DNA of 61,659 bases, counting the filler. It is 3 parts of 3 records of this genome, joined end to end, with 100 filler letters (N's around TTAATTAATTAA, not from the genome) between each part and the next. Parts side by side here need not be neighbours in the genome. Positions count along the whole stretch, not along the records: positions 18,602 to 48,904 come from SRR31156797_2560; 2 more parts are not named here. The stretch is one strand, 5' to 3'. The position numbers and the translations under genes are program-made. The number at the start of each line of letters is the position of its first letter. The stretch's first letter is position 1. The notes beneath the pieces were generated by a model, which did not search any database, was not told the origin of the DNA, and worked only from the letters and a program-made list of their open reading frames with translations. Shown piece after piece: positions 24,894 to 59,094 of this stretch.

Positions 24894-25295
24894 CTATTCG
24901 TTGTCGCTTTTAAAAACAAATATCGGGAGCCGAGCCAATGTTTCCCAGTCGCCTTCTGTTTTTATTGCAACGGAAATAACATGCTTGCCTTCAGTTTCTA
25001 CACGTAAGCCAGGAAGTTGGAAATTCATTTTGTGGAGCATGGTGCCTCCGGGAGTGATTTCCTGCATTCCCAGCGTGATGGACTCTCCTGTGGGAGGAAT
25101 GAGGTTCAAGGACACCGTAAAAGGTTTCTCTCCACTGTTTTCGAGGTCCCACAGGCTGGCAAAATAGATTGACGGCAGGGTGGCCGGGAGTTCGGGAACA
25201 ACGGCATGTTCGATGGTGCGAATAAAAGATGTGGAACTCGAATCTTTATCGATGATGAGGTCCGAGCAGATCAGTGCGTAAATAAGTTCTGTCAT
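24894..25295 (-). CDS. Hypothetical protein (DUF6941-like beta-sandwich)
   Basis: ALICSDLIID...SFI pattern; 13 nt downstream of the HEAT gene. Confidence 0.65.
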   Translation of the reverse strand: MTELIYALICSDLIIDKDSSSTSFIRTIEHAVVPELPATLPSIYFASLWDLENSGEKPFTVSLNLIPPTGESITLGMQEITPGGTMLHKMNFQLPGLRVETEGKHVISVAIKTEGDWETLARLPIFVFKSDNE

Positions 25296-25308: not shown

Positions 25309-26295
25309 TTATTGGGTATGCAGTGCTCCGGTCATGGACCGGCGTATTTTTTTTGGCAGCGTGTTTGCCAGTTCCGGGTCTATCCCGGTTAACAGCAGGG
25401 CAGCGGCGATTTTTTGACCATCGGTGCCGGTTGCAAGGATCGCTTTGAGGGCTGGCTCGGCAACCCTGCCCATGCGGGCGAGGGTATAGAGGGCTATATT
25501 CCCCATGGGAGTACCTGGTCTGGTCAGAATTCTGACCAAAGAGGGAGCCGCATTGGTTCCTATTTGTTTAACCGGACATTGGCTGTCGGAAATACCGATC
25601 AGTGTCATTTCGTGGTAGACGACTGCTGGATTCGGGCCGATCAGATCAAGGCTCTCACAGAGGACATGGATGATACGCATGTCACTGTCGTTGAGTGCGC
25701 GAATGAGAGCTGGAGCGGCGGATAAAGCCTCGTGGCCCATTCTGCCTAGTAGCCAGGCCGCTTTTGCTTTGGCAAAGGGATCATCCATTTTGAGCATGGT
25801 CGTCAAGGCGGGAATTGCGGATGTACCCATTTTGCTGAGAGCCAGCGCTGCGCCGTTTCGCACCTGTTCGTTGGGATGAAGCAGGAGACTGGTGGTTGGT
25901 GCGGCAGCAGCTTCTCCGATTTTTGCCAATGCGTGTGCAGCCAGACTGCGGACGGTGGCGTCTTTATCATTCAAAGCCTTGAGTAAACCGTTTGTTGCCA
26001 ACTCCGGTACAGGGAGGAGAGCCAGAGCGATAACAGCACCGCGTCGTTGATCCGTTGTCCCGTTGTCGGCGATTTTGAGGAAACACCCCATGCACCCCTG
26101 CCCATTTTCAGATAAGGCCTCAATTCCCGCGGCGCGTTCCGTTGGGTCCTGACTGAGCAGCATTGCGGCGATTTCAGAGGCAAGAGCCGCGTCAGTCGTT
26201 TCCGTAGCTTGGACAGGAACAGCCAGAAGGCCGATAAGGAGTAGGGAGAACGTCCCGTACAGGCTTTTTATCAAAATTTGTCGATAGTCTAACAT
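25309..26295 (-). CDS. HEAT-repeat protein with N-terminal signal/TM
   Basis: Repeated VR..AA.AL..IG units. Confidence 0.85.
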   Translation of the reverse strand: MLDYRQILIKSLYGTFSLLLIGLLAVPVQATETTDAALASEIAAMLLSQDPTERAAGIEALSENGQGCMGCFLKIADNGTTDQRRGAVIALALLPVPELATNGLLKALNDKDATVRSLAAHALAKIGEAAAAPTTSLLLHPNEQVRNGAALALSKMGTSAIPALTTMLKMDDPFAKAKAAWLLGRMGHEALSAAPALIRALNDSDMRIIHVLCESLDLIGPNPAVVYHEMTLIGISDSQCPVKQIGTNAAPSLVRILTRPGTPMGNIALYTLARMGRVAEPALKAILATGTDGQKIAAALLLTGIDPELANTLPKKIRRSMTGALHTQ

Positions 26296-26319: not shown

Positions 26320-27066
26320 CTATTTTCTGGACATGTCGTTCCAGGCCCAAACCACATTGCCCCCGATGGCGTGAGCAATGTCCCCTTGGAAATCGTGTTT
26401 TAGTCGATACGTCATGGGAGGGTGTTCACGATTGTTTTCCGAATAGAAAATCAATTCCACATCATCATCAAGGCGTCTGGTGTTGACTCGTTTGATGTTG
26501 ATTGCGCCGGTTGCACCGGGTTCGCGGACGAGCATGATTTTTCCGGCGGGACTGGGGTCTCGATCATTGCGGTCAACAATGACGATGTCACCGGCATGAA
26601 GTATTGGTTCCATGGAGTGCTCTCCGACTCCGATTTTCATAGCCACCAGATTTGATCGGAAGCGGATGGATTCCTGATGTCGCCATACCAATATCCACCC
26701 TTCGACGTTGTCTTCAGGGATGAGGCCGGGGGAGACCGCAAGGGCTGGTGTGACGAGTGGAACAGCCATGTAATCGTCTGATTGCGGTTCAGGCATTGCC
26801 GCTTCGGATTCGCTTCCGCCCGGCAGGGTGAAGCAAACTTCCCTTGAGGCATCTGTCGGTTCGTCTCCGAAGATGACGGAGATACCCACCTTGTCCAGAA
26901 TGTGACCGAGAGATTCCGAATTCAGACCCCGTTCCTTTTTTAGAAAGCGATTAAGTTGGGATGGGTCGACTCCGAGTTCGTCTGCCATCCGTTTGTTGTT
27001 GGAGTATCGTTTACCAGGACCGATGCGGTCAATGAGTGCTTGTCGCACATCGTCGGTGAATCCCAT
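26320..27066 (-). CDS. Phage CI/LexA-type repressor (XRE HTH + S24 peptidase-like domain)
   Basis: HTH MADELGVDPSQLNRFL; SMEP (catalytic Ser), GDIVIVD and IKRV (catalytic Lys). Confidence 0.85.
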   Translation of the reverse strand: MGFTDDVRQALIDRIGPGKRYSNNKRMADELGVDPSQLNRFLKKERGLNSESLGHILDKVGISVIFGDEPTDASREVCFTLPGGSESEAAMPEPQSDDYMAVPLVTPALAVSPGLIPEDNVEGWILVWRHQESIRFRSNLVAMKIGVGEHSMEPILHAGDIVIVDRNDRDPSPAGKIMLVREPGATGAINIKRVNTRRLDDDVELIFYSENNREHPPMTYRLKHDFQGDIAHAIGGNVVWAWNDMSRK

Positions 27067-27221
27067 GAGATCCTCTTATTTGAGTTAATGGTTGGCCTGT
27101 TTATACATAAAAATTGGTAAATGTCTAAACGATTGTGACAAATTTTGTTGACTTTCAAATAGACAATTGACTATGTCACAAAAATACAAATTGAAATTTG
27201 TCAAAAAAGAGGTGGGGTTTT

Positions 27222-27617
27222 ATGGAAAAAGTAGACATTGTGCGTTTGGAAAAAGGAGTGGAAGGAACCTTCGGGGTTTTACGTTTGAATGGACAGGTTC
27301 TGTGCGTGACTTTGGAGCCACCGGATCGTGGTAACCAGCCAGAAAGGTCGTGTATTCCTGCGGGTGAATACTTATGCAGCCGGGTGGATTCGCATTCTTT
27401 CGGACGGACGTATGAAGTATCTGATGTGCCGGGGAGATCTCATATTTTGTTTCATCCCGGCAATGTAGTGGGTGATACCCATGGGTGTATTTTACTCGGC
27501 AGGAATTTTGGTTTTCTTGAAGGTTCTCGGGGGATCATGCAATCGCGATCCGCTTTTCGTGAATTTTTGGATCGGTTGGGTGGTCAACTGTCTTTTGTGG
27601 TGAGGGTTGAAGAATGA
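27222..27617 (+). CDS. DUF5675 family phage protein (putative L,D-transpeptidase-fold cell wall enzyme)
   Basis: TLEP..N...SCIPAGEY...VPGRSHILFHPGN..DTHGCILLG; ATG 27222 follows GAGGTGGGG. Confidence 0.75.
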   Translation: MEKVDIVRLEKGVEGTFGVLRLNGQVLCVTLEPPDRGNQPERSCIPAGEYLCSRVDSHSFGRTYEVSDVPGRSHILFHPGNVVGDTHGCILLGRNFGFLEGSRGIMQSRSAFREFLDRLGGQLSFVVRVEE

Positions 27618-27862
27618 TGCTAAAATCTCAGGACATATGTTTGAAAGGTGCGCGTGAGATTTGTGACGCGGTCGGGGAAAATTCGCGAAACATCATAGAA
27701 TTGGTTCGCGATAAGGGGTTGCCGGCATGGAAGCGGGAAGACAAGGGCGCGTGGCGGGCACTCCCAGAGGATTTACACCGTTGGATACGTGAACAACGAG
27801 ATCGGAATATAAGCAATTATGTCCGTCGAGAGCGGTGGGACGGCCTCGAAGGCGAAGAATGA
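27614..27862 (+). CDS. Small HTH DNA-binding protein (excisionase/AlpA-like)
   Basis: LKGAREICDAVG...GLPAWK...WRA...L..W pattern; ATGA overlap with the upstream gene. Confidence 0.7.
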   Translation: MMLKSQDICLKGAREICDAVGENSRNIIELVRDKGLPAWKREDKGAWRALPEDLHRWIREQRDRNISNYVRRERWDGLEGEE

Positions 27863-27877
27863 TGAGGGGATGCCGGT

Positions 27878-29191
27878 TTACGGCAAGGTCGAAATGCGGG
27901 ATACGGAATCGAGCAGGGTTGTGGCTAGATTGTCCAGTTCCAGCCCCGGTTCCAGTGTTGTGATGGCTGTGGTTCCGATAATCTTTCGGCCATAGCCGTC
28001 GCCGACTTTGGTTTTTACGCCCCATACCGAATGCAAGACGATGGGTTCGTCATCGCGACTGCCGATGTAGAGCATGATATGTCCGGGTTTACGGACCAAT
28101 GTCATGAATGGAACAGCTTTTTCCACGATCAGTTCCTTTTTTTCATCGGAGTCTAATTTTTCCAAGAGGGTCAATTTACCAAATTTGATTTGCTGGCTGG
28201 AATTGCGTGGCAAAAAGATACCGAACGCGGCCATCAGGTCCATGGTTGTGGCCGAACAATCTCGATTTTCATACAATCCGCCCCAGCCGTATTGCAGGCC
28301 GAGCATGGCATTTGCCAGCTTGGTGAAATTGGCGGGAGTGGCCGGGATCGGTGCTGTCTCCGTTGTCCTTTGTGGCAGTGTCGCGTGGACAGCGATAGCG
28401 TTTCCGTGGCGATCACGGATCGGGATTATGAAGGCTTCCGGTTGGTCTTGTGTGGCCGGAGTTACGGGGATTAATGTTCCGATATGTGCGATGAAGCAAT
28501 GGTTGCCATCTTCATCCGTTACGGGAGCATTGTCAGTGGAGAGAGTTTTGTATGCCCCGGTTTTGTATGCGGCGACAAAAGTGTCATCCACCCAAGCGAT
28601 TTCTCGGGCAGGTACCCATCCGAAGGCAAAGCGGGTTTCCACAAGAATCCATGCGCCATCTGCGCTGACATGAGCGGCGTACAACGGCGTTCCCGCAAGG
28701 ATCAGTGAGTTTTGCATGTAGTCGAAGGGGAATCCTTCTCCGGCCCGTTTGAAATCATAGAATACCGGTTGATTGGTGGGGAGTACCCGCATGTTTGTGT
28801 TGGTCACGGCAATGGCGCGTCGGCCCATGGAAGGATAAGTCCCAACCTGAGAGGCCTCGGTTAGATTGAGTATCCAGCGAGGATCGCGAAGTAGCGTATT
28901 CTCCCCGTACAGCTTTTTGTGACCGTACACCGCCAATCCCCAGAAAGCCTCATCCGCCGGGTGTTTGGGTTCGGTTTGTTCCCAAGGACCGAAGTGTTTC
29001 TTCAGAAAATTATCAAAGGCTTGTTGCTGGGCTTCGGCTGAAATGAGTGGGGAATTGACCGGCAGGCCATGATACGCACCCGCATTTTGTTCCAGTTCGA
29101 TCAGATCAAGAACGGGGGCGTTTGGGTCTTGTGCAGCGCAACCCGCGAGGAGAAGAAGCGTCAGAACAAGCGCAATGGCATGCCGGGTCAT
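27878..29191 (-). CDS. NlpC/P60 lipoprotein with SH3-like domains (cell wall peptidase)
   Basis: Lipobox LAGC; YGWGG..RDCS and PGHIMLYIG motifs. Confidence 0.9.
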   Translation of the reverse strand: MTRHAIALVLTLLLLAGCAAQDPNAPVLDLIELEQNAGAYHGLPVNSPLISAEAQQQAFDNFLKKHFGPWEQTEPKHPADEAFWGLAVYGHKKLYGENTLLRDPRWILNLTEASQVGTYPSMGRRAIAVTNTNMRVLPTNQPVFYDFKRAGEGFPFDYMQNSLILAGTPLYAAHVSADGAWILVETRFAFGWVPAREIAWVDDTFVAAYKTGAYKTLSTDNAPVTDEDGNHCFIAHIGTLIPVTPATQDQPEAFIIPIRDRHGNAIAVHATLPQRTTETAPIPATPANFTKLANAMLGLQYGWGGLYENRDCSATTMDLMAAFGIFLPRNSSQQIKFGKLTLLEKLDSDEKKELIVEKAVPFMTLVRKPGHIMLYIGSRDDEPIVLHSVWGVKTKVGDGYGRKIIGTTAITTLEPGLELDNLATTLLDSVSRISTLP

Positions 29192-29200
29192 ATTCACCGT

Positions 29201-29776
29201 CTATTTTTTTATGTATTTTTTACCGATACTGAAACCCTGCCCCACGAATTTTGAAACAGTGTGGTAGGCGCGAGTGCCGGGGCTGAAAACCAGAGGAAGG
29301 ATCTTTTCAGGATCAGGGTGTTTGCCGTCAACGAGTTTGTCTTCGTCGCACTTAACATCTTTTATTTCGCCGATGAGCAGAGTGTGGATGCCCTGTTCAT
29401 ACGTGCCGGTCAGTTCGCATTCGATGACCAGCGGAAATTCTTCGATGTAAGGAGCATTGACGCAGTCGCTTTTTGTCGGAGTCAGGCCGGTGGCAGCGAA
29501 TTTGTCGACTTTTTTGCCCGAGACCATGCCGAGGAAATCCGACTCTGCGGCCAGATATTCAGGGCAGACAGAGACGGTGAATGCTTTGTGTTTCATGATG
29601 CCCGCATACGTGTGGCGGGATGGACGCAAGGAGACGGTCAGGCTGGCAGGGTCAGAACTGCATATGCCGCCCCAAGCCGCGATCATGGCATTGGGTTTGT
29701 TGTCTTCGTCGTATGCGCCAACAGCCCATACCGGTGCGGGTTGGGCCAGTGTCTTGGGGCCAAGTGATTTTTTCAT
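29201..29776 (-). CDS. flr: Flavoredoxin (flavin reductase family)
   Basis: MKKSLG, N.M.AAWGGIC and APYIEEFPLVIEC motifs; start corrected to ATG 29776 with AAGGAG. Confidence 0.8.
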   Translation of the reverse strand: MKKSLGPKTLAQPAPVWAVGAYDEDNKPNAMIAAWGGICSSDPASLTVSLRPSRHTYAGIMKHKAFTVSVCPEYLAAESDFLGMVSGKKVDKFAATGLTPTKSDCVNAPYIEEFPLVIECELTGTYEQGIHTLLIGEIKDVKCDEDKLVDGKHPDPEKILPLVFSPGTRAYHTVSKFVGQGFSIGKKYIKK

Positions 29777-29841
29777 GAGTCTCTCCTTGTATGCAGACAA
29801 CTCTATGTCATTTTTAAAAAAGATGGAATGGAAACCGGCGA

Positions 29842-30897
29842 CTACAGTCTGGAAAGAGCCGGATCGGTCTGTGTGGAAATCGACTGCATGACGCCGTGGC
29901 ACCACCCGCAATCGGTGCAGTTCTTGTCACAGGTTGAGACCTGAGCGAATAGTTGGTCGGGTAGTTCCTTGTTGGGGATATCTATTCGGTCGGCGAGGTC
30001 TCCCATGGCGTCCATGAGATCAAGCAGATTGCCCGAGTAGGAACCGTCGATATACGCGGTTATGGCCCTTTTGAGGAAGATGACTCCCTTGGTGCGACCA
30101 CACAGTTTGATGCCGTCTATCAGTCCTTCATACCGATGAACGTCTTCAGGCCGAATGAATGGCGAGGCGAGCATGAGGCCGGGGTCCTGCAACAATCGTC
30201 GTACACAGCCGAGGTCTCGATTCATGGCAAAGGTTCGTTCGTGACACAGCCCTTCGTTGACCAGCGATATGTGGGCATCATGAGCCGGCTTATAGGGGCA
30301 TTGGTATAAGCACCCTTCGTTGGCCAGAAGATGTATTTTCATGGTCGGATAGAGACTACGTACCGCATTAATGAGTTCCTGTAATCGTGAAGGATTCCTG
30401 TTGAGTGCCCGGTCGGGGACGATGCGGGATGGCGGCTTGAACATGGTCCCGTCAATCATGGCAAGCATGGCGAAAAGTCGTTCAGGGGAATCCAGCATGC
30501 AGTTGACGCTCGGGATGGCTTCCAGCGATCCTGCCAAATCAGGATGGGCATCGGAAAGTGCCTGAAGAAAATATGGATCGGCAAAGATGACACCTGAGAT
30601 ATCTGTTTTTTCGAGAATGTGTTCAAGGCGTCGTGCGGTCTCGTCCAGTCCGGTTTTGCCGAAATATCGTCCCGGTGCATGGAGGCGTGCGTTCATGAGG
30701 ACATATTTATCCACGCCTTCAAGGGCAGAAAGGCCCGAGATTATTTTGTCCAGTCCCGGGCTTTCCATGCGGTGCCGACTATCTGCCAGTCGTTGATCAT
30801 ATAAAGAGAAATGGACCGAGGTCAGCGATGCCGCGTGTCGGGCCAGGAAATCGGTATAGTCCCCATCCGGGACAAAGGGTACGTCGAGGGAGAGCAT
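29842..30897 (-). CDS. Peptidase U32-like (TIM barrel, Fe-S) protein
   Basis: LLANEGCLYQCP..H, FIRPED, KLCGR and C-terminal CxxxCxxCxxC motifs. Confidence 0.65.
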   Translation of the reverse strand: MLSLDVPFVPDGDYTDFLARHAASLTSVHFSLYDQRLADSRHRMESPGLDKIISGLSALEGVDKYVLMNARLHAPGRYFGKTGLDETARRLEHILEKTDISGVIFADPYFLQALSDAHPDLAGSLEAIPSVNCMLDSPERLFAMLAMIDGTMFKPPSRIVPDRALNRNPSRLQELINAVRSLYPTMKIHLLANEGCLYQCPYKPAHDAHISLVNEGLCHERTFAMNRDLGCVRRLLQDPGLMLASPFIRPEDVHRYEGLIDGIKLCGRTKGVIFLKRAITAYIDGSYSGNLLDLMDAMGDLADRIDIPNKELPDQLFAQVSTCDKNCTDCGWCHGVMQSISTQTDPALSRL

Positions 30898-30945
30898 AGG
30901 TAGTTCTCGCCTCTGTGCTCCTTTACGTCAAGAGGGTTTGGGAAA

Positions 30946-31383
30946 TTAGCCGATGGAGCTGTTGACCCAGTTCTCAATATCCTGTGTATTCATGGCACCT
31001 TGCTGGCGTGCGATTTCTCGACCTTCCTTGAAAAGAATCAACGTGGGAACGGCCATGACATTGAACCGGGCGGCAATGGCCTGATCCGCTGTAGTATCCA
31101 GTTTAGCCAGACGCACTTTGGGATGAAGTTGTTTTGCCGCATCATCGAATTGTGGTCCCATCATCAGGCATGGCCCGCAGGTGGGAGAATAAAAATCCAC
31201 CAGTACAGGGACGTCGTTTTTGGCAATATGACGGTCAAACGTGGGGCCAACCAGTTCCAAGGGTGTTGCTTCGAAAACCTTGGCCTTGCATTTGCCGCAT
31301 ACAGCTTCGGCTTCACGTCCGGCATGAACACGGTTGAGAGCTCGGCAGGCGGGGCAGACAATGAGTTTTGTGTCAGTCGTCAT
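30946..31383 (-). CDS. trxC: Thioredoxin 2 (zinc-finger thioredoxin)
   Basis: CPAC...CGKC zinc finger and CGPC active site; GGAGG RBS. Confidence 0.85.
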   Translation of the reverse strand: MTTDTKLIVCPACRALNRVHAGREAEAVCGKCKAKVFEATPLELVGPTFDRHIAKNDVPVLVDFYSPTCGPCLMMGPQFDDAAKQLHPKVRLAKLDTTADQAIAARFNVMAVPTLILFKEGREIARQQGAMNTQDIENWVNSSIG

Positions 31384-31440
31384 GGGTATGTCCTCCAATT
31401 CAGGATGTAATCATGGGAAATTCAAGGGCAAGGGGATGTG

Positions 31441-31848
31441 TCATATGGGCAGGAAAGATGCGGTAGCTCGGGCAACGTCACGGCCATCAGCCTGAACGCT
31501 GGCTTCTGTGAAGAGTATGCGGCTGCCACGCTTGACCACTCGGGCTTTGCAAACGAGATCCGTATGAGGTTGCACCGGACGAAGGTAGCTGACATTCATG
31601 TCCACAGTCGCGGTCCGTTTGCCTTGCGGGTTTCCACCCAGCACTGCATGGGCCATGGTTTCATCCAACAGGGTCGCCAGTATGCCACCGGCGACAACCC
31701 CCGCGCCTTGAAGGAGTTCCGGTTTGGCTGGTAGTCTGAGAATTGCGTTATCCGGTTTGATTTCATCAACTTCAATGCCAAGGAAGGCAAGGAGCGGGTT
31801 GATTGTCTGGTTTTTTTTGCGAACTTGTTCAAGGTATGCGTGCGGCAT
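31441..31848 (-). CDS. PaaI family thioesterase
   Basis: GVVAGGILATLLDETM and TVDMNVSYLRP motifs. Confidence 0.9.
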   Translation of the reverse strand: MPHAYLEQVRKKNQTINPLLAFLGIEVDEIKPDNAILRLPAKPELLQGAGVVAGGILATLLDETMAHAVLGGNPQGKRTATVDMNVSYLRPVQPHTDLVCKARVVKRGSRILFTEASVQADGRDVARATASFLPI

Positions 31849-32668
31849 ATTCAGCGTCTCTCTTTCCTTGTTCCACTTGTGCCTTCATGGTTTCCCGTAA
31901 GTCGGAGAGGATTCTAATGGTCCCATCAACGTCATCTGGGAATGCAGCCGGTTCCAATTCAAGAGTTATGTAACGGTCATAGCCGCGTTTGCCAAGTCGG
32001 TTGAGAAAATCTTCCAGTGGCAGATTCCCTACGCCGGGTGTCAGGTGCTCGGTGTATCCAACTGCATCAGAGTAATGCACATTGTACAACAAATTGTCAG
32101 GCACCTTGTCTATGGCGTGAAGTACATCGCGTCCGGAAACACCCATGTGGCACACGTCAAAGGTGAGGCCGACGTTTTTGTCCCGACATTGATCCATGAG
32201 CCTTTCGAGTGGGTCTTTGGCAAAGGGCGAACCCTCGGCCCAAGGCATGTTTTCCAGTGAAAATTGTATACGCCCTTTGGCGTCGAGCAATAACGGCAAG
32301 TCATAGGCCTTTTCGAACCAGCGGTTCTGGATCATGTTGGCAAGCTTGGAGCCGGGAGGGTGCATGGTGATGTGGTCGGCTTGAGGAAGCGAGTTGGCCA
32401 AAGCTGTCGTCGCCTTCCATGAATTGAGATGTCCGCCCCAAGCGGCCCAGTCACGAAACGGTGCATGCAGGCTTCGTATGGGCAATATCTCATCAATCTT
32501 TTCCAGTCCTGCCTCGGGTGTGAGTTTGGGTGAATTCATGATTAATTCCATGCCCACAAAGCCAGCGTCCCGGCCAATGCGCGCGATGAGCTTCAGCGGG
32601 AGATGAAAGAGACACCCTGCCGACAGCAGGATCTGGGGGCCGGTGTGACCAGTGGATACTGCGTCCAT
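31829..32668 (-). CDS. Sugar phosphate isomerase/epimerase (xylose isomerase-like TIM barrel)
   Basis: LENMP, FDVCH, VHYSD, EHL.PG.G and ITLE motifs. Confidence 0.85.
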   Translation of the reverse strand: MDAVSTGHTGPQILLSAGCLFHLPLKLIARIGRDAGFVGMELIMNSPKLTPEAGLEKIDEILPIRSLHAPFRDWAAWGGHLNSWKATTALANSLPQADHITMHPPGSKLANMIQNRWFEKAYDLPLLLDAKGRIQFSLENMPWAEGSPFAKDPLERLMDQCRDKNVGLTFDVCHMGVSGRDVLHAIDKVPDNLLYNVHYSDAVGYTEHLTPGVGNLPLEDFLNRLGKRGYDRYITLELEPAAFPDDVDGTIRILSDLRETMKAQVEQGKRDAEYAARIP

Positions 32669-32823
32669 GTCGTAGATAATAGATGAATTGAGCACCCAGG
32701 CAATCAAATAATCGGGGAAGGGCAGAAACTATCGGGTAAACGGCAAACGGAAGAGGGATATTTCAAAGAAGAGGTAAGGCAGCAAATGTATTTTTCTCGC
32801 AGTGACTGAGTGCTACTGGTTGG

Positions 32824-32862
32824 AAAAAAGAACCCCGCCCAGACGATACTGTCTGGGCGGGA
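32824..32862 (-). terminator. Intrinsic terminator
   Basis: CCCGCCCAGAC...GTCTGGGCGGG with a T-rich tail on the minus strand. Confidence 0.75.
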
Positions 32863-32927
32863 TATTGATATCGATAATTTGTATAGTGAATTATTTTAGG
32901 TAAAAAGGAATCGTCACTTATCGGTAT

Positions 32928-33314
32928 CTACTTGGTCGGAGATTTTTCGATGAGGTCTGCCACCACAAGCGCCCACGACATATCCCGTTTGTTATCTTCG
33001 GTCATATCGTCGAGAACCCATTCCTTGATCGGTTTTATGGCTTCCTTGAGTCTTGCTGGTCCTAGGTCATTGACCTTGTATGCGGCTTCCAGCCCATTCA
33101 GGCAGAGGTGATCAAATTCGGGATTCAGGTCTCCTTGATGGTAGGCCACAATATCTCGAATGAGAAGCAATCCGAAAACAATGGCCTCGACTTCGGTATA
33201 GTCTCGACCCCATATGTCTCCGCCCCGAATTTCAGGGTGTTCTCTTACAGGAACACGCGACGCCCGTTTGCCGAGAGTCTGACGGAATTCTTCCAATGCA
33301 ACAACGCTACCCAT
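32928..33314 (-). CDS. Hypothetical protein
   Basis: AGGAG before ATG 33314; preceded by a sigma28-like promoter and followed by a terminator. Confidence 0.75.
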   Translation of the reverse strand: MGSVVALEEFRQTLGKRASRVPVREHPEIRGGDIWGRDYTEVEAIVFGLLLIRDIVAYHQGDLNPEFDHLCLNGLEAAYKVNDLGPARLKEAIKPIKEWVLDDMTEDNKRDMSWALVVADLIEKSPTK

Positions 33315-33458
33315 GACCGCTCCTTTCTCCTTCTTAGTCACTCTTCTTTTCGGTAGAGTTCACGTTTTGCTTTAGGGTTTATTTTGTTGAAGAAGCGCGC
33401 GCTGGGATGTTTTGTTGACGGCACTATGGGCCGTGGCAGTCTCTTTATTAATGTATAA

Positions 33459-33485
33459 TCGTCGGCGTAATTGAGTGTGTTTTTA
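33459..33485 (-). promoter_or_regulatory. Sigma28 (FliA)-type promoter
   Basis: Minus strand TAAA-N15-GCCGACGA (consensus TAAA-N15-GCCGATAA). Confidence 0.6.
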
Positions 33486-33623
33486 ATTAATTATAAAAAG
33501 TGAACTTATCGTATGGTTGCCGTAAAATAGTGAACCGGTCCCAGTGAAAGTTATGCTTTTTGAATATGGGAAAATACAGAAGTAAAGAGTTTGGTGCGCA
33601 ACTTTTCGTGGTGCGTTTGCCAT

Positions 33624-33649
33624 AAAAAAGGCCGGAACAAGTCCGGCCT
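33624..33649 (-). terminator. Intrinsic terminator
   Basis: AGGCCGGA..TCCGGCCT plus T-run on the minus strand after the CBS gene. Confidence 0.7.
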
Positions 33650-33671
33650 CGTGGTGATTGTGTGGAAGGGA

Positions 33672-34346
33672 TTACAGGACGGTATGAACCGGATCTTTAG
33701 CCCAGTATTGGACCTGAAATCTTTCCGCCATACCTTGTTGAAGCCGTTTGAATTCGGGCTTCTCCATTTCGCGAATGCGGATATAGACGTCCTTGATGCT
33801 TTCGGATTCCGAAACATTGCGTGTCATGATGTTCATGATTCGGGCGTTGTTTGCTTTGAGGTAATCAAGAACCGGAGCCAGACTTCCTGCTTCAGTGGAA
33901 ACCTGAAGGCAGACTTGTGAGCCGCCCTCATAGACGCCGGAGATTTCCACCAATACTTTGAAGATATCCGTATCGGTGATAATGCCCACGACTTTATCAT
34001 CCTCATCAATGACGGGAAGGCCGCCAAAGTTGCCTTCCAGCATGAGAACTGCTGCTTTTTCAACGGTTTCGTCGGACCTGATGGTCATCGGCTTTTTGGT
34101 CATGATGTCTTGAATCTTGATCTCGGAGAGCAAATAATACAGCTCATGCATATCCAGCGTCGTGGCCTTGGATGGTGAAGCGTCCTTGATATCACGGTCC
34201 GAAATTATGCCGACAATTTTGCCATCCCCATCGACCACAGGCACGCGACTGATGGATTTGTCCTTCATGACCTTGGAGGCCTTCATCATGGAACGGTCTG
34301 AAGAGATGGTTACGACATCCTTGGTCATCCAGTTGGCTACGAGCAT
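33672..34346 (-). CDS. CBS-pair + ACT domain protein (AcuB-like)
   Basis: MLVANWMTK, VPVVD..IVGIISDRD and ASPSKATTLDMHELYYLL motifs. Confidence 0.88.
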   Translation of the reverse strand: MLVANWMTKDVVTISSDRSMMKASKVMKDKSISRVPVVDGDGKIVGIISDRDIKDASPSKATTLDMHELYYLLSEIKIQDIMTKKPMTIRSDETVEKAAVLMLEGNFGGLPVIDEDDKVVGIITDTDIFKVLVEISGVYEGGSQVCLQVSTEAGSLAPVLDYLKANNARIMNIMTRNVSESESIKDVYIRIREMEKPEFKRLQQGMAERFQVQYWAKDPVHTVL

Positions 34347-34662
34347 ATAGGTTCCTCCTTGATTTCCGGTCAGTCTGGACCGGTTGCATTCGATATTCCT
34401 TAACTATTCCATACAGACAACGGCTGGTTTTGGCTAGCCCCATCGTGAAGCGGCAAGCAGCTCATTGTCGTATGTCTGTTTTTCGTTGTGAAGGGTTTTC
34501 GTCTGGCTGGAGAGCATCCTGTCAAGCTGATTTTTTATACTTATCAAGTGTTTTTAGTATGCAATCATTCACATTTTCATGGTTTTTCTAAAATGGGGGT
34601 ATGCTGTTTCATGAATCCGGGGGCGATGAGTTTTCACCCTCTAGAAACTGGAGAATTGCGAA

Positions 34663-35070
34663 ATGGCAATACCGCTCATTGGTGCGGTGGCAGGATTGTT
34701 GTCCATGGTTGTGGATGGCGTATCCGGTCACCTCAAACGAAAAGAGGATTTGAAGAAGGCGGTCATGGAAAACCGTATGCGGTTGGCCCGAAGTGATCGG
34801 GAATTCAATCATGAATGGGAAATGAAGCAGTTGGAGAACGCAGGCTGGAAGGATGATGTGCTTTTTTTTGCCTGGATAGGGTTTTTCATCTGGTCAGGGA
34901 TTGATCCTGAGGGAGCCGGAGAAGTTATACGATCTTGGGAGAATCTGCCTGATTGGTTTTTACAGGTTACGTTCTGGATTGTTGCTGCCGTACTCGGCGT
35001 CAAGAAAATCGGTGACTTTTTGCCCGGAGCTGTTCGTGGCATCAAGGATGCGTGGGGAGGCGTAAAATGA
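34663..35070 (+). CDS. Phage-type membrane protein, putative holin
   Basis: N-terminal amphipathic helix, charged coil, GWKDD, two TM helices (LPDWFLQ...AAVLGVK) and basic C-terminus; resembles 3-TM phage/GTA holin architecture. Confidence 0.55.
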   Translation: MAIPLIGAVAGLLSMVVDGVSGHLKRKEDLKKAVMENRMRLARSDREFNHEWEMKQLENAGWKDDVLFFAWIGFFIWSGIDPEGAGEVIRSWENLPDWFLQVTFWIVAAVLGVKKIGDFLPGAVRGIKDAWGGVK

Positions 35071-35279
35071 CCACGCTGGAACGGCAGGATTTGCAAAATA
35101 TGCTCATCCGCATTGACGAGCGGGTCAAGGCTATTCAGGAAGACATCCGGGAAATCAATGAATCCCGACGGTGTGCAGCTAATCAGGTGAAGATACGATC
35201 TTTGGAGCGTGTTGTCTGGGGCTGTATGGCGACGGTGGCAGTTTTGGGAGCCAGAGTGCTGCTTGAGGCCGTACGATGA
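35067..35279 (+). CDS. Small phage-type coiled-coil + C-terminal TM protein (XhlA/holin-like, 70 aa)
   Basis: GGAGG RBS; ATGA overlap with the previous gene; LIRIDERVKAI...IRSLERVVWG then a TM helix. Confidence 0.6.
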   Translation: MTTLERQDLQNMLIRIDERVKAIQEDIREINESRRCAANQVKIRSLERVVWGCMATVAVLGARVLLEAVR

Positions 35280-35284
35280 GATCG

Positions 35285-36205
35285 TCAGGGAGTGGCTTTT
35301 CCCAGATAGCTGTCGAGTTGTTGCCGGTACAGTCGAGCCATGGCTTTGTCACCAGTTGCGTCGGCAAGGCTGATGGCTCGGCGTACTGCCTTGATGGCTC
35401 CGGGAATGTCATCGGTTCCAGCCAGAGCCTCGGCCAACAGAGCTTGAAGTGTGCTTCGGCGAGGTTCAAGGGCTACAGCCCGTTTGAGAGCTGTGACTGC
35501 CGTATCAAATTGTCCGAGTTTCATGGCGGCTTGTGCGCGTGCCATGATAATCTGGCTATTCTCCGAATCCAGAATGAACGCCTGACTCAGGTCACGGAGG
35601 GCTGGCTCGTACTGTCCGAGCGCCATGTAGGCCATGCCCCGTCGGTAGTTGGCGTCCAGATGAGCGGGGTCGAGTGCGAGCGCGTGGGTGTAGTCGTCAA
35701 TGGCTTCGTCCGTTCGTCCCAGTCCATCATAGCAGAACCCCCGCCGGACATACGCTTCGGCTATGGTGGGATCTGTACTGATGACCTGTGTGAAGTCTCT
35801 GGCGGCACCGCTGAGATCTCCGAGTTGGAGGAGGATGAAGCCTCGGGTGTAATGCCCTTTTGTATGATTGGGCTTGGCCTCAAGCAGTATATTCGCATCT
35901 GCCAACGCTTCGTCGTACCGATGCATTTCAAAAAGCAATGACGATCTGTAATACCGCGCTCCTGCCAAAGAAGGATCAAGTCTTAAGGCTCGGTTCAGGG
36001 AATCGAGAGCCGCATTGGCATCCAGGAATTGACCGTCGTGCATGAGTTGCATGGCTTGACTCAAAGCGTCGGCGGCTTCTGCCTGATGTTGCTGAAGGTT
36101 TATTTCCTGAGGAGTCAAAGGGGGCGGAGTCGGTCGATTGTTTGCACAACCGGTCACCGTGGCGAACAGAAAAAAGAATATCAGGACGGGACAACGCATT
36201 ACCAT
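35285..36205 (-). CDS. TPR-repeat lipoprotein
   Basis: Lipobox VTGC and several 34-aa TPR units. Confidence 0.88.
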   Translation of the reverse strand: MVMRCPVLIFFFLFATVTGCANNRPTPPPLTPQEINLQQHQAEAADALSQAMQLMHDGQFLDANAALDSLNRALRLDPSLAGARYYRSSLLFEMHRYDEALADANILLEAKPNHTKGHYTRGFILLQLGDLSGAARDFTQVISTDPTIAEAYVRRGFCYDGLGRTDEAIDDYTHALALDPAHLDANYRRGMAYMALGQYEPALRDLSQAFILDSENSQIIMARAQAAMKLGQFDTAVTALKRAVALEPRRSTLQALLAEALAGTDDIPGAIKAVRRAISLADATGDKAMARLYRQQLDSYLGKATP

Positions 36206-36251
36206 GAGATACCTTTCGGAGAACCGTCCGTCAACATAAGGAAAATGAAGA

Positions 36252-37538
36252 ATGACACAAGATATGTATACACCACGAGAGCATCAGGCAAAGATCGAGG
36301 CCTCATTAGCTCGATTCTCGGTTCTGGTCTGTCATCGTCGGTTCGGTAAGACCGTGTTGTCGGTCAATCAGCTCATCCGTGCGGCCAGAAAAACGGACCG
36401 GTCCGATTGGCGTGGAGCCTATATTGCTCCGCTCTATCGGCAGGCAAAAACCGTGGTTTGGGATGAACTCAAACGATATTGCGGACTGGGACTGGATGAT
36501 TGCACCGTAAAGTTCAATGAAACTGAATTGCGAGCGGATTTTGAAAATGGCTCACGGATTAGACTCTTTGGGGCCAACAATCCCGATAGCTTGCGTGGCA
36601 TGTATTTGGATGGAGTGGTCTTTGATGAGGTGGCGCAGATGCCCCATCGGGTTTGGACTGAAGTTATCCGACCCGCTTTGTCTGATCGCAAGGGGTGGGC
36701 CTTGTTTATAGGTACACCGCGCGGGAAAAATGCCTTGTATGAGATATGGGAGAAAGCCAGGCTTGACCCTGATTGGTTCACGGCCATGTATCGTGCTTCC
36801 GAAACCGGAATTATTCACCCTGATGAGTTGTCCGCAAGCGCGCGTGAAATGTCGCCGGAAGAATATGAACAGGAATTTGAATGTTCATTTACAGCAGCTA
36901 TTCGCGGCGCATACTTTGGTCAGCTCATGAGCGATGCAGACAGGGATGGTCGCGTGACTTCTGTGCCGCATGATCCGTCCATGCCTGTTCATACGGCTTG
37001 GGATCTCGGTATGTCCGATTCCACGTCCATCTGGTTTATTCAGGCCAAGCCGGGTGGTACGTATGCCGTCATCGACTATTATGAGGCCAATGGCGAAGGA
37101 TTAGACCATTACGCCAAAGTGTTGGACCAGAAAGGATACAAATATGGCATGCACATTGCGCCACATGATATCCGGGTGCGTGAATTGGGGACGGGTAAGT
37201 CCCGGCTTGAAGTGTCTCGCTCTCTCGGTATCCGGTTTGATATCGCCCCGAATATCCCGGTACAGGACGGGATTAATGCCGTGCGGACCATTTTGTCGAG
37301 TTGTTGGTTCGACGAAAAAAAATGTGCGCTGGGCATCGAAGCCCTTCGGCATTACCGCAGATCCTTCAACGACAGAACCGCGAATTTTTCCACCCGGCCT
37401 GTGCACGACTGGACCAGCCACGCCGTGGATGGATTCCGTTATTTTGCCGTGGGATTTCGTCAACCTGAGTCGGGCCACAGAGCATCGAAAACATCCAACG
37501 ACTACAATCCATTCGGGAGGTCCCATGGCCGTTCGTAA
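36252..37538 (+). CDS. terL: Phage terminase large subunit (intact)
   Basis: YTPREHQ adenine motif, Walker A HRRFGKT, Walker B GVVFDE, FIGTP motif III, nuclease AWDLGMSD and HDWTSHAVDGFRY. Confidence 0.93.
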   Translation: MTQDMYTPREHQAKIEASLARFSVLVCHRRFGKTVLSVNQLIRAARKTDRSDWRGAYIAPLYRQAKTVVWDELKRYCGLGLDDCTVKFNETELRADFENGSRIRLFGANNPDSLRGMYLDGVVFDEVAQMPHRVWTEVIRPALSDRKGWALFIGTPRGKNALYEIWEKARLDPDWFTAMYRASETGIIHPDELSASAREMSPEEYEQEFECSFTAAIRGAYFGQLMSDADRDGRVTSVPHDPSMPVHTAWDLGMSDSTSIWFIQAKPGGTYAVIDYYEANGEGLDHYAKVLDQKGYKYGMHIAPHDIRVRELGTGKSRLEVSRSLGIRFDIAPNIPVQDGINAVRTILSSCWFDEKKCALGIEALRHYRRSFNDRTANFSTRPVHDWTSHAVDGFRYFAVGFRQPESGHRASKTSNDYNPFGRSHGRS

Positions 37539-37887
37539 CGTGGAACATCGGCCGGAGGAATTATCTAATTTCCCGGAAACGGGGAAGTATAGGTGGTTGG
37601 AATTGCATGACGCAGCAATTACCTATGGATACTCGGCAATCGCTGAACACGACGACATGCTTGAGTTGCATGTGACGCTTGTTCGGTGGGGAAGAAATGT
37701 CAGGAAGAATCTTGGAGAGGACGTAAAATGGTTGAAGGCAGAGGCCCAACGACTTGGAAAGAGTAGGATCATGGGCATTCGAGCTGATGACCGGGGGCAA
37801 TTTGATCCTCGGCTTTTCAAGTTTGCCGGGTTGTTTGGATTTACTGAAATGCACACGATTCAAACGGCAACGCTTTGTGTTGATTGA
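37525..37887 (+). CDS. Phage-associated hypothetical protein, possible GNAT fold (120 aa)
   Basis: GGAGG then ATG 37525; overlaps the terL stop by 14 nt; ELHV...LKAEAQRLG...KFAGLFGF pattern. Confidence 0.65.
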   Translation: MAVRNVEHRPEELSNFPETGKYRWLELHDAAITYGYSAIAEHDDMLELHVTLVRWGRNVRKNLGEDVKWLKAEAQRLGKSRIMGIRADDRGQFDPRLFKFAGLFGFTEMHTIQTATLCVD

Positions 37888-37966
37888 CCCTTTGGTTGCC
37901 AAAAAAATCGAAAGAAGGCGCACATTTATAGATGTTCGCCTTTTTTCGTCTATGGTTTGTTTGGAT

Positions 37967-40270
37967 CTATGCCGCACCGGCCACGATGTCTCCGCCGATC
38001 CGTTCAGGTGCTGCGAAGTTCATGCTGACTTGGGAGGAATTATCAAACACGTATGTGGGTGCTTCGTTTGTCGAAATGTGCATTTCTCGGGCATCCACAA
38101 TGTTAGTGACTGAATTGTCTTCCGAGATTTTGTTGAAATTATTGGTGACAGAGAGAGATGTGGAATTGTCATTTTCTACAACGCGAGTTTCCGGGAAGGC
38201 CATGGTTAGATTGTGGTTTTCCACCACGTTGGTGTCGCTATCGTCCACATACGTGGTCTTGGCGTTATTCTGATCAACGAATGTGTAAGTGGTGGACTGA
38301 TCGATAATCCGAGAGTTGTCGACATCGTTCTCCACCGAGTTGTTATACTGGAAGGACATGGTGTGGTTTTCCACCAGATTCGTATCATTATTGGTGATAA
38401 TGTTTTGAATGGAGTTGTCCTGATCCGTGAAATGGAAGCTTGTGGACTGATCGATGTTTCGTGATTGATCGAAATTGTTCTCTGAACTGAGGTTGTAGGC
38501 AAACGACATCTCGTTGTGCTCGTTGAGGATAGTGTCGTTGTTGTTGATGTGGTTTTCCACGGAATTGTCCTGCTCCGTGAAGTTGAACACCGTGGATTGC
38601 TCTACCTGACGGGAGTTGTCGGTCTCATTGACATGGGTGTCGTTGATGTTTTGTTCGAAATTTCGGTTCTCCGTAAAGCTGATGTCATTGTCGGAGCTGT
38701 AGTTCGTCTGGGAGTTGTCGACCTGTTGCTGGGTGTATTCCGCGCTATTCTGGACGGTGGTTGAATGGTCCTCATTTCGTGTGACTGAGTTGTCATTCTC
38801 CAGTGTCAGGTCCTGATCGTTGACGAAACTAACGGATGAATTATCCACTTCGGTACGGTCTGTTGATCTGTCTTCATTGGTGTTTTGACTGGCGTCCACA
38901 TTCCTGATGTTCACATTTTCTGATTCGTTGCTGATTTGTTGGTTCTCTGTGTTGTTGACCGTCTTGGAATTGTCCTGCTGACTGACAATGTTGGTCTCGT
39001 TGTCGGTGATATTTTCTTGATTGGTCACCTGACTGAGCTGCTGGGTCAATTGATGATTTTCCACGGTGCTCATATCTTGGTTGCGGGAGACGGAATTGTC
39101 CACGTTGTTTTCTGTGAGATACTGGTCGCTACGGTGGATGGATGAGTTCATGGACTGATCTAAAGATCGGTCTACGGACTCATTGTTCGTTGTCAGGTGT
39201 GACTGTTGAATATCCTGCGTTTGGTCGATGTTCAGAGAATATTCGGACCGCATGTCAATATTACTGCCGGGACCGTTGGTGTCAGCAAAGTTAACCTTGG
39301 GAGATTCGTATGGTTCGGCATAGCCGTCCGCTGTGGGAATCCATGGGGCCATGGGTGTTTTTGGCGGAGAGTACGGTGCGGAGTGCTTGGTATGATGAAT
39401 GACATCGCTGGGCCAGCTTTGGGTATGCCCGAAATACATCCCATGCGGTTGTGTCATCTTGGAAGCTGGGATGGTGCCAGCTGGTGAGATGGGTACAAAA
39501 CCGGACAGGGTGGGCATGGAAAATCCCACTTTGGGTGTCATGGGAACAGATCCCGCAGGGGAGATGGGCTGAATACCCATTTGTGGTGCGATGGCAACGT
39601 TGCCGGTTGCGCTGGTCGGGGGCGCTCCTGCTGGTTGGGCCGGTGCTCCTCCGCCTCCACCTGAAAGCCCGCCGCCGCCAGTAGATGGTGTGATCGCAGG
39701 CTTGCCCGACTCTGTGGAGATGGGGACATTGGCGCCGCCGGATACGCCGCCCGAGCCAGTATTATTCATGTTGATGGGGTTGGAACTGCCAGTCTGCCCC
39801 GAGCTTCCTGCGCCGGTAGATTGACCGACTGAATTGCCGCCGGTGTTGTTCTGGACTGTGCCAGGACCACCGCCTGCGCCAATATGTGCGGCACCAGTGT
39901 TGTTGACTGCACCGCCTCCGCCTCCGCCACCACCGCCGATGTGTGATGCGCTTGAACCGCCGCCGACAGCTCCGCCGCCAAACGAGCCGCCCGTACTGCT
40001 TGTCCCTGCGAGGGAGCCCCCGCCAAAGGATGCGCCTCCGGCACCTGCATAGGCACTGGCGTTGATGCCCCCGGTTGGGCTGGAATAGGGAATTCTGGCC
40101 ATGGATGTGTCGATCATCACGCGTGCAGGAGTGGTATCAATGGGCACGTGGCCCGGTTCTCCCGTAACGATTTGACCGGCTGGTCCGGCTTGAAATGAGC
40201 CTGCTGGCCCGGCTGTCACCTGACCGGCTGGTCCGGCTACGATGAAGTCGGTTACACTCGACATGGACAT
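37967..40270 (-). CDS. Low-complexity repeat protein (767 aa): AGPAG repeats, Gly-rich and Pro-rich segments, N/D/T/Q-rich repeats
   Basis: Long open frame; GGGGAGAG before ATG 40270; three 50-aa tandem repeats at 38171-38620. Confidence 0.8.
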   Translation of the reverse strand: MSMSSVTDFIVAGPAGQVTAGPAGSFQAGPAGQIVTGEPGHVPIDTTPARVMIDTSMARIPYSSPTGGINASAYAGAGGASFGGGSLAGTSSTGGSFGGGAVGGGSSASHIGGGGGGGGGAVNNTGAAHIGAGGGPGTVQNNTGGNSVGQSTGAGSSGQTGSSNPINMNNTGSGGVSGGANVPISTESGKPAITPSTGGGGLSGGGGGAPAQPAGAPPTSATGNVAIAPQMGIQPISPAGSVPMTPKVGFSMPTLSGFVPISPAGTIPASKMTQPHGMYFGHTQSWPSDVIHHTKHSAPYSPPKTPMAPWIPTADGYAEPYESPKVNFADTNGPGSNIDMRSEYSLNIDQTQDIQQSHLTTNNESVDRSLDQSMNSSIHRSDQYLTENNVDNSVSRNQDMSTVENHQLTQQLSQVTNQENITDNETNIVSQQDNSKTVNNTENQQISNESENVNIRNVDASQNTNEDRSTDRTEVDNSSVSFVNDQDLTLENDNSVTRNEDHSTTVQNSAEYTQQQVDNSQTNYSSDNDISFTENRNFEQNINDTHVNETDNSRQVEQSTVFNFTEQDNSVENHINNNDTILNEHNEMSFAYNLSSENNFDQSRNIDQSTSFHFTDQDNSIQNIITNNDTNLVENHTMSFQYNNSVENDVDNSRIIDQSTTYTFVDQNNAKTTYVDDSDTNVVENHNLTMAFPETRVVENDNSTSLSVTNNFNKISEDNSVTNIVDAREMHISTNEAPTYVFDNSSQVSMNFAAPERIGGDIVAGAA

Positions 40271-40425
40271 GGGTGTCTCTCCCCGCCGCGAGCAGACCTT
40301 CCATGGTCTGATTGATGCCCACACCGGGGCATTTCGGCATATATACAATATACGAACGCCAAAATGTCAGTCAAGGTCTATAATCGTTCCCGATGTGGAT
40401 GAGTGGGAAAGGTGGTGTTTTTTCC

Positions 40426-41812: not shown

Positions 41813-41944
41813 AATGAGGACTATATTACATTGAGGCATGTGAAACAAGAATATGGGCAGTTTTCAATACTTGGTTGCCTGACCTATGGAAAACACGCTA
41901 CTCTGCATCCATATATTCTGCACACATGTCACGCGAGGCACCAT

Positions 41945-48845: not shown

Positions 48846-48904
48846 ATTTCGCCGAAGGCGACACGAAAAGTTTGGGAAAAGGAGAGGATGGGGGTCTGGG
48901 GGAA
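48846..48904. repeat. Probable REP-like extragenic element (truncated by contig end)
   Basis: TCGCC-gaa-GGCGA hairpin, then AAAAGTTTGGGA and a G-rich arm running into the break. Confidence 0.4.
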
Positions 48905-49004
48905 NNNNNNNNNNNNNNNNNNNNNNNNNNNNNNNNNNNNNNNNNNNNTTAATTAATTAANNNNNNNNNNNNNNNNNNNNNNNNNNNNNNNNNNNNNNNN
49001 NNNN
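48905..49004. other. Artificial contig linker
   Basis: 44 N + TTAATTAATTAA + 44 N; sharp composition change after it. Confidence 0.98.
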
Positions 49005-49034
49005 GTTGCTCTAATCCAACTGAGCTACTAGACC
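49005..49034 (-). tRNA. tRNA 5' fragment (likely tRNA-Arg; anticodon not visible)
   Basis: Minus strand GGTCTAGTAGCTCAGTTGGATTAGAGCAAC = acceptor 5' strand plus D-arm. Confidence 0.75.
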
Positions 49035-49053
49035 ATTCCCTTAAAAGGCGATG

Positions 49054-49086
49054 CAAATATAGGGATTTATTACTTTCCGAAACAAA
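49054..49086 (-). promoter_or_regulatory. Bacteroidota housekeeping promoter for the tRNA
   Basis: TTTG-N21-TATATTTG (-33/-7 consensus TTTG/TAnnTTTG). Confidence 0.7.
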
Positions 49087-54193: not shown

Positions 54194-54203
54194 TCACCAA
54201 CTA

Positions 54204-59092: not shown

Positions 59093-59094
59093 AA

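Follow-up and report, generated by a model that had tools for sequence, protein, structure and literature searches.

Seven phage-type genes in three islands of a stretch of Pseudodesulfovibrio DNA are probably pieces of one domesticated, vertically inherited particle system that derives from a T7-like podovirus and resembles a gene transfer agent (GTA). We give this reading a probability of about 0.6. The stretch analysed, hereafter the window, has 61,659 nucleotides (nt) and consists of three parts joined end to end, with positions 18,602 to 48,904 coming from record SRR31156797_2560. Its islands hold a CI/LexA-type repressor gene facing a DUF5675 gene and an HTH_17 gene; a holin-like gene with a coiled-coil gene; and the gene of the large terminase TerL with a small gene behind it. 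The first-pass annotation had proposed that they are the regulatory, lysis and packaging part of a vertically inherited GTA-like system, and the sequence analysis supports this, with 'GTA' denoting a function that we infer. Gene content, vertical inheritance, purifying selection, dispersal and a shared promoter-like element are directly supported, and a particle ferrying host DNA between cells is a strong candidate for the product. These data support a new, independently domesticated and unusually scattered variant of the GTA kind.

Results

All seven genes are intact open reading frames (ORFs) where they had been annotated (ORF listing plus Pfam and PHROG scans), and the overlaps described for them (ATGA, ATGA and 14 nt) are present on inspection. 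TerL is encoded at 36252..37538 on the + strand and matches Terminase_6N (E 4.5e-11) and phrog_2 (E 2e-42), with phage P74-26 TerL (E 1.6e-15) and T4 gp17 as relatives in the Protein Data Bank (PDB). It was said to keep its ATPase and nuclease motifs, and what we take to be Walker A, Walker B, the coupling motif and three nuclease motifs do not vary in any of the 13 sequences compared (the window and 12 orthologues). As a query, TerL matched all 25 genomes of the genus that were searched, 24 of them near full length at 71-99% identity; in the remaining genome, G025, the match is a 34-residue scrap. None of 16 genomes from other families of the order was matched. All 12 genomes examined, even those with differing flanks, preserve the order holin-like gene, coiled-coil gene, antisense TPR gene, terL, small gene. 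The orthologues thus sit in a conserved host context, as predicted, and are not patchy.

The portal, capsid and tail genes that had been expected elsewhere in the chromosome exist, and are dispersed. Proteins of a T7-like prophage (in G012) served as structural queries on 31 genomes of the genus, and the window protein as the DUF5675 query. The capsid gene was found in 30 of the 31 (62-67% identity to the prophage; phrog_3437 E 7e-65), as were the portal gene (24-29%; phrog_332 E 7e-130) and the tail tube B gene (33-38%; homology to a phrog_376 protein), and tail tube A was found in all 31 (27-32%; phrog_394 E 8e-52). DUF5675 is likewise present in 30 of 31, the genome without a match being an 87%-complete assembly. 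Most genomes have one copy per structural gene, and extra copies stand in recognizable prophage contexts; a search of the window found no structural gene inside it. The capsid gene is followed by a conserved gene of 82 amino acids (aa), the portal gene by a 76-aa gene and a scaffold/protease-like gene (phrog_3742/458), and tail tube B by a 155-aa gene and a 328-aa fibre gene with a T7 gp17-type N-terminus (phrog_1640 E 4e-24). Portal, scaffold, capsid, both tail tubes and a fibre of this type make up a T7-like structural set, present in G001 and, by gene, in 30-31 of 31 genomes. Two ORFs of G020 were considered and rejected: the matches of a 504-aa ORF after the scaffold gene are full of stops and it is probably the antisense of a host gene, and a 271-aa ORF between capsid and portal is the antisense of the real 82-aa gene and the start of the portal gene.

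G001 is the nearest genome (98.4-98.9% identical across window positions 26947-48904). It carries tail tube B at 3.050 Mb, tail tube A at 3.072, TerL at 3.092, DUF5675 at 3.102, portal at 3.315 and capsid at 3.491, and the set thus spans 440 kb. G022 and G014 have the whole set within ~60 kb, and an interval of 7 kb holds TerL, capsid and portal in the deepest species (G016 and G020). Most genomes have a span of 60-440 kb, against genomes of 34-35 kb in the closest phages; one particle, at the capacity presumed for its capsid, is too small to carry the whole gene set that encodes it.

The scattered operons share an 87-nt promoter-like element. Its single copy in the window (34518..34604, + strand) ends 59 nt upstream of the holin-like ATG. 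Searching with a regular expression written by hand proved too strict for the promoter core, with near-zero matches; an nhmmer profile built from the window copy was used instead and found 31 copies among the fetched loci. A search of upstream regions placed the element ahead of five operon heads, namely holin-like, capsid, portal, tail tube A and tail tube B, and all five heads have it in six genomes (G001, G005, G007, G002, G011 and G024). The operons that it heads outside the window are capsid with the 82-aa gene, portal with the 76-aa and scaffold genes, tail tube A alone, and tail tube B with the 155-aa and fibre genes. It was not found upstream of TerL (0 of 12 genomes), DUF5675 (0 of 3), the small gene (0 of 12), fibre (0 of 11) or scaffold (0 of 12). 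The consensus, CCTGTCAAG..TTTTTTATACC...CATTC.TTC.CA...CCGG.TTTG..AAAACGGGG.TA.G, contains what we read as a near-palindrome beside a -10-like TAnnnT.

An extra copy of the element lies upstream of portal in G001 (L042 11529-14369), where it heads four genes of 437, 178, 136 and 100 aa. Three paralogues of the 437-aa protein occur in G001 and differ in their C-terminal parts, and short fragments of residues 262-320 of the protein recur in downstream ORFs. This cassette-like pattern could reflect exchangeable fibre or spike ends, or a polymorphic protein.

Inheritance and selection were analysed in 12 genomes, using pairwise ratios of nonsynonymous to synonymous substitution (dN/dS) by Nei-Gojobori for pairs with dS of 0.05-2, many of them saturated at synonymous sites. 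Median dN/dS is 0.14 for TerL, 0.13 for the holin-like gene, 0.18 for capsid, 0.17 for tail tube A, 0.19 for portal and 0.23 for tail tube B. This range of 0.13-0.23 is comparable to that of host genes (CBS 0.18, TIM barrel 0.13, thioredoxin 0.12, a Pat-like gene 0.05), and agrees with the expectation that the phage-derived genes do not evolve neutrally. The 939-aa Pat-like gene (window 41831-44650), gathered from the genus down to 70% identity, served as host marker. Every supported clade is common to the trees of the host marker, TerL and the concatenated capsid, portal and tail tubes, with disagreement confined to nodes below 85 support; the TerL tree and the concatenated structural tree have one topology. 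For every phage-derived gene, pairwise distances are correlated with the host-marker distances (r 0.75-0.90). Congruence of the TerL phylogeny with the host, on which the proposal of vertical inheritance depended, was thus found within the genus at all supported nodes. Taken together, these results indicate that the phage-derived particle genes are resident in the host chromosome, vertically inherited and under purifying selection.

The lysis genes ahead of TerL are equally constant. The holin-like membrane protein gene (34663..35070, +) matches phrog_2524 (E 8e-8), a family without assigned function, has three hydrophobic stretches on inspection and is 72-100% identical in 12 of 12 genomes. 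It overlaps by ATGA with a gene (35067..35279, +) for a 70-aa coiled-coil protein with a C-terminal hydrophobic helix, which is kept in 12 of 12 genomes at 50-100% identity and has a weak DUF7201 match below the cut-off. The latter had been called XhlA-like from inspection alone, and the label was dropped because no XhlA family match was found; the protein may be a lysis accessory. Next comes, on the - strand, a TPR lipoprotein gene (35285..36205; TPR_2 E 1.6e-36). It occupies the same place in 12 of 12 Pseudodesulfovibrio genomes and evolves fast (31-100% identity, median dN/dS 0.45); it was not found at the corresponding place in G083 and G137.

The gene behind TerL (37525..37887, +) overlaps its end by 14 nt and encodes 120 aa. 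It follows TerL in 12 of 12 genomes and also in G083, G137 and G073, and among 5.8 billion proteins it has 10 matches, all close homologues. It has no Pfam or PHROG match, and comparison of its sequence with the PDB gave nothing meaningful. Its AlphaFold2 model (predicted local distance difference test score, pLDDT, 89.3; predicted template modelling score 0.79) resembles a truncated GNAT fold, and Foldseek placed GNAT acetyltransferases on top (1ufh, E 7e-5, template modelling (TM) score 0.55; range 0.55-0.59). The earlier label of GNAT-like therefore stands for the predicted fold and fails for family membership: there is no Pfam match, and the protein is ~30 residues shorter than the matched enzymes and lacks a recognized coenzyme A motif. 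A hairpin followed by a T-run lies beyond it at 37917..37946 (GGCGCACAT / ATGTTCGCC, one mismatch, then TTTTTT). It was read by eye and was not flagged by a consensus scan, and we hold with low confidence that it might be a two-way terminator.

The repressor island has the layout of a switch. The CI/LexA-type repressor gene (26320..27066, -) matches Peptidase_S24 (E 4.8e-6; 26.7 bits against a cut-off of 23.3), phrog_4 transcriptional repressor (E 4e-12), phrog_6201 and phrog_725, which upholds the cI-like repressor described as divergent from DUF5675 and HTH. The protein combines the N-terminal DNA-binding part and the S24 domain with Ser-Lys dyad of a LexA/CI-type repressor. The Ser (in HSMEP) and the Lys (in IKR), which we take to be the catalytic dyad, are visible in the translation, and no clear self-cleavage site of the Ala-Gly type is visible ahead of the catalytic domain. 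Opposite DUF5675, the repressor is present in 9 of 9 further genomes at 56-72% identity. The divergent control region between them (27067..27221, 155 nt) contains six inverted-repeat pairs of TGTCA/TGACA half-sites, for example TTGTGACAAATTT / AAATTTGTCAAAA with 92% complementarity, which may be operators.

DUF5675 (27198..27617, +; E 1.4e-33) more likely starts at ATG 27222, because its homologues have 131-133 aa. Its sequence gave zero matches in the PDB. In Foldseek every top match of the model (pLDDT 91.7) is a YkuD-type L,D-transpeptidase/carboxypeptidase fold, with weak scores (best E 0.013, TM score 0.49), and His86 and Cys97 are invariant among homologues. The modelled fold makes it a plausible candidate for a cell-wall enzyme with an endolysin role. 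The HTH_17 gene for an excisionase-type DNA-binding protein (27614..27862, +; E 4e-5, 24.2 bits, below the cut-off of 27) always follows DUF5675, in the 9 further genomes and in G001, G005 and G011, at 61-95% identity. No integrase stands beside it, and we propose that it is a regulator.

Two genes on the repressor side can be added to the earlier gene list, as they belong to the conserved island. A HEAT-repeat gene (25309..26295, -; HEAT_2 E 6e-20) stands between the repressor and the last gene of that operon, DUF6941 (24894..25295, -; Pfam DUF6941 E 8.6e-6, just under the cut-off). DUF6941 adjoins the repressor side in 8 of 9 further genomes; its nearest Atlas clusters are also DUF6941, and the look-up gave no function. 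The HEAT-repeat gene has the same place in 6 of 9 and is probably a later insertion, since it is absent from the three deepest genomes (G020, G016 and G193). The order in 9 of 9 further genomes is DUF6941(-), optional HEAT(-), repressor(-), DUF5675(+), HTH_17(+) and then usually NlpC/P60(-).

The genus also contains ordinary prophages, in which second TerL copies of 45-71% identity reside. Two of these were annotated: a P22-like prophage in G017 (L025) and a T7-like prophage in G012:C137 (L028/L144). The T7-like one encodes the small terminase TerS, TerL, portal, protease/scaffold, capsid, tail tubes A and B, three large internal-core-type proteins and a fibre. Both carry DUF5675 and a holin gene upstream of TerS-TerL; in L025, DUF5675 is directly ahead of the holin-like gene and an 80-aa gene lies between the latter and TerS. 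The three islands of the window hence keep phage gene order. Host genes would have been inserted between the pieces, and the TPR gene appears to stand in place of terS, since it occupies the slot of the small terminase gene in phages, where TerS is found in L025 and L028.

The holin-like gene of L025 (7937-8347) is 76% identical to the chromosomal one, and its TerL only 51%. It seems that active phages and the domesticated set either swap this lysis gene or conserve it to an unusual degree.

The closest phages are T7-like temperate podoviruses. The window TerL is 71% identical to that of prophage G012:C137 and 47.5% identical to those of the Pelagibacter podophages HTVC203P/Skadi, and the PHROG families of portal (phrog_332), capsid (phrog_3437), tail tube A (phrog_394) and fibre N-terminus are shared. 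Those phages have contiguous 34-35 kb genomes that encode TerS and internal core proteins, and the prophage also has a piece of an integrase gene; the chromosomal set is dispersed and appears to lack all of these.

Among 151 genomes of the family, the only ones outside the genus to carry window-type TerL (at least 63% identity) belong to g56 (3 of 3 genomes), g46 and g85; in g56 and g46 the holin-like and small genes come with it. Ten genera have the capsid gene at an identity of 60% or higher. Portal was present at 58-69% identity in all five genomes tested from g31, g48, g49 and g59, and window-type TerL was not found in those five. Three of them (G075, G076 and G123) have a distant TerL-like ORF of ~480-510 aa near the portal (L162, L161 and G123:C14); by BLASTP, those of G075 and G076 are 19-23% identical to the window TerL over the nuclease part. 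Orthologous portal and capsid genes beside a different TerL imply that the particle genes are older than the genus and that two TerL lineages serve them, which argues that a packaging motor is needed. The motor appears to have been swapped on one side of the family.

Discussion

What we infer is how the genes are regulated, that TerL is co-transcribed from the holin promoter, and that host DNA is packaged, released and transferred. In the proposed mechanism the repressor would be relieved, probably by self-cleavage upon DNA damage, which would turn on DUF5675 and HTH_17. A regulator, possibly HTH_17 itself, would then activate the five operons jointly. Capsids would assemble, and TerL, working without a sequence-specific small terminase, would load them with host DNA. 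The holin and the wall enzyme would finally lyse a fraction of the cells and release GTA-like particles.

Several observations weigh against a working GTA. The structural loci were mapped in relatives such as G001 and not in the genome from which the window comes. For window 34400-37950 no matching RNA run is listed; four runs that do match are DNA contigs of a relative 98.4% identical to it and bear no information on expression. A prophage TerS query found no match in five genomes at E<=0.1, in a search without a positive control. The internal-core-type proteins of prophage G012:C137 (654, 886 and 896 aa) were unmatched in G001, G007, G022 and G020, with G012 matching as positive control; such proteins diverge fast, and a failed match does not prove absence. 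A DNA-ejection apparatus of T7 type may therefore be missing or unrecognizable. TerL lacks its own copy of the promoter element, and an antisense gene of 0.9 kb precedes it, so that TerL is most likely transcribed from the holin promoter through the TPR gene, and in more distant genomes the element was detected ahead of only some operon heads. The coiled-coil gene and the 120-aa gene evolve fast (median dN/dS 0.28 and 0.41). The near-full-length TerL match of G010 contains one stop, and G025 is without TerL, capsid, portal and tail tube B; loss is the simplest reading there, because its sister G193 has capsid, portal, DUF5675 and both tail-tube genes. In G005:C1 the capsid gene is split, with residues 1-216 at 2473489-2474133 and residues 210-277 at 2431303-2431506, ~42 kb apart, which suggests an insertion or rearrangement that inactivated the gene in one lineage.

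Some of these points would suit a domesticated particle selected for something other than gene transfer, such as killing or lysis of cells, programmed lysis that frees DNA for biofilm or nutrient sharing, or capture of infecting relatives, or competition with them, by the capsids. Conservation, selection and co-regulation imply a function without specifying which one, and delivery might be impaired if the internal core proteins and TerS, which were not found, are indeed missing. Interference is conceivable as well, given that active related prophages in the genus share capsid, TerL and holin-like genes at 65-76% identity. We nevertheless consider such a function unlikely: a retained TerL with intact motifs, a portal, a tail tube and a fibre fit DNA packaging and attachment to cells best, two TerL lineages are retained beside orthologous portal and capsid genes, and PADLOC returned zero defence-family matches. 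For nine of the 10 proteins submitted to PADLOC there was no match at all, and the TPR gene had weak generic TPR matches only. The same result, together with vertical inheritance of a locus that is not mobile, speaks against an anti-phage or phage-parasitic element, in which the chromosomal TerL, holin and switch would take over or abort infections by related T7-like phages and be linked only secondarily to the scattered structural genes. Its attraction is that an S24 switch with lysis genes resembles abortive or satellite logic and that related prophages are common in the genus, but the same promoter-like element heads the holin-TerL operon and four structural operons, and we regard this account as very improbable.

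That the islands are decaying fragments of an old prophage, without present function and kept by chance or by linkage to host genes, we find barely credible. TerS, integrase and replication genes were not found, host genes are inserted between the pieces, one capsid gene is split and one genome is without four core genes, all as decay would have it. However, the ORFs are intact in 23-31 of 25-31 genomes, dN/dS is 0.13-0.23 at near-saturated synonymous sites, and catalytic motifs are invariant and promoters conserved. With the host marker diverged to 70% identity, neutral decay would have destroyed the phage-derived ORFs, and the selection analysis already contradicts it. A domesticated GTA-like particle system thus remains our preferred reading. 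A bolder form of it, that of a Dd1-type GTA, would make the set an ancient T7-like viriform, present in at least ten Desulfovibrionaceae genera and scattered over at least six loci in Pseudodesulfovibrio, with one regulon under the 87-nt element, an SOS-type repressor switch and a TerL that packages host DNA without a small terminase; this falls a little short of an even bet.

To our knowledge, GTAs outside the Alphaproteobacteria have barely been characterized. Within that class, RcGTA and CcGTA combine vertical inheritance, purifying selection, ectopic fibre or lysis loci and a dedicated activator acting on GTA promoters. They are of HK97-type siphovirus origin with one main cluster of ~15 kb, whereas the Pseudodesulfovibrio set is T7-like, occupies at least six loci and has a CI/LexA-type switch. 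Closer in taxonomy is Dd1, the GTA of Desulfovibrio desulfuricans, which Rapp and Wall are said to have described in 1987 as a short-tailed particle with host DNA; the figure of 13.6 kb reportedly given for it was not found in our literature search. Dd1 comes from the same bacterial family, and a T7-like gene set would build such a short-tailed particle. We know of no verified Dd1 genes since 1987, and to this extent the first-pass statement that its genes had not been identified stands. It did not take into account a candidate in print: Table 1 of PMC6854486 and the review PMC11841831 propose a contiguous cluster around Ddes_0720 as TerS in D. desulfuricans. Dd1 was defined experimentally, in another genus and with a contiguous proposed cluster that includes TerS, whereas the present set is scattered, has no recognizable TerS and is known from its genes.

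The best-documented podovirus-like agent is FpGTA of Faecalibacterium prausnitzii (PMC12946183), a member of the Firmicutes. It has host-owned podovirus-like head, tail, packaging and lysis genes in two loci ~125 kb apart and is genus-wide; the paper further describes particles, ~9-kb packaged DNA, proteomics, a TerS-like gene and two operons. The Pseudodesulfovibrio set, likewise podovirus-like and host-owned, shares with what is described there the split loci, lysis genes and genus-wide conservation. It differs in that particles and a TerS-like gene are reported for FpGTA, whereas our set consists of five operons and is known from its genes. We apply the GTA/viriform category as it is used in PMC9662315. 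A literature search, which did not extend to supplementary files, found no paper on a Pseudodesulfovibrio GTA or terminase.

The outcome is a testable gene list, consisting of a switch and five co-regulated operons, in cultivable sulfate reducers, which would let the question of the Dd1 genes be addressed directly. If the reading is true, the system would be an extreme case of a virus-derived machine scattered through a chromosome and united by a shared promoter, with consequences for gene flow among bacteria that matter in corrosion, sediments and mercury methylation.

Host genes and flanks

The genes between the islands on the - strand had been described as ordinary host genes without an obvious composition shift, and both statements were borne out. 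GC content is 0.47-0.55 across the phage-gene region, similar to the flanks, and Pfam assigns the intervening genes to families of ordinary cellular genes: NlpC/P60 with SH3, Flavin_Reduct, thioredoxin, a 4HBT thioesterase, an AP_endonuc_2 TIM barrel, CBS and the TPR lipoprotein. The identity of a 351-aa gene (29842-30897) that had been labelled U32 is unconfirmed, because it had no Pfam match in two scans, and a 137-aa gene (32928-33341) had zero matches in the family scan. Inspection of the window's genes revealed no integrase or replication module, with no systematic scan around the other loci.

The NlpC/P60 gene with SH3b domains (27878-29197, -; Pfam) comes directly after HTH_17, here and in 8 of 9 further genomes. 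It may simply be the neighbour inherited from the ancestor, or the system may use it as a second wall-degrading enzyme. On the other side of the window's phage genes, a 793-aa low-complexity protein is encoded at 37967-40348 on the - strand, Gly/Ser-rich in its first half and with Asn/Asp/Ser-rich repeats in its second. It has no family match in Pfam or PHROG, and an Atlas look-up yielded no function; its gene adjoins the small gene in many genomes and sits between TerL and capsid in G020.

Collinearity with G001 stops at window position 48904. From 48900 to 61659 the GC content falls sharply from ~0.52 to 0.30-0.38, the sign of the GC skew flips, and the genes are housekeeping-like (two of the aconitase family, MFS, a metallo-beta-lactamase fold, SBF, DHH and a RecF-like ATPase). 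This part of the window could be a foreign island or a chimeric assembly join.

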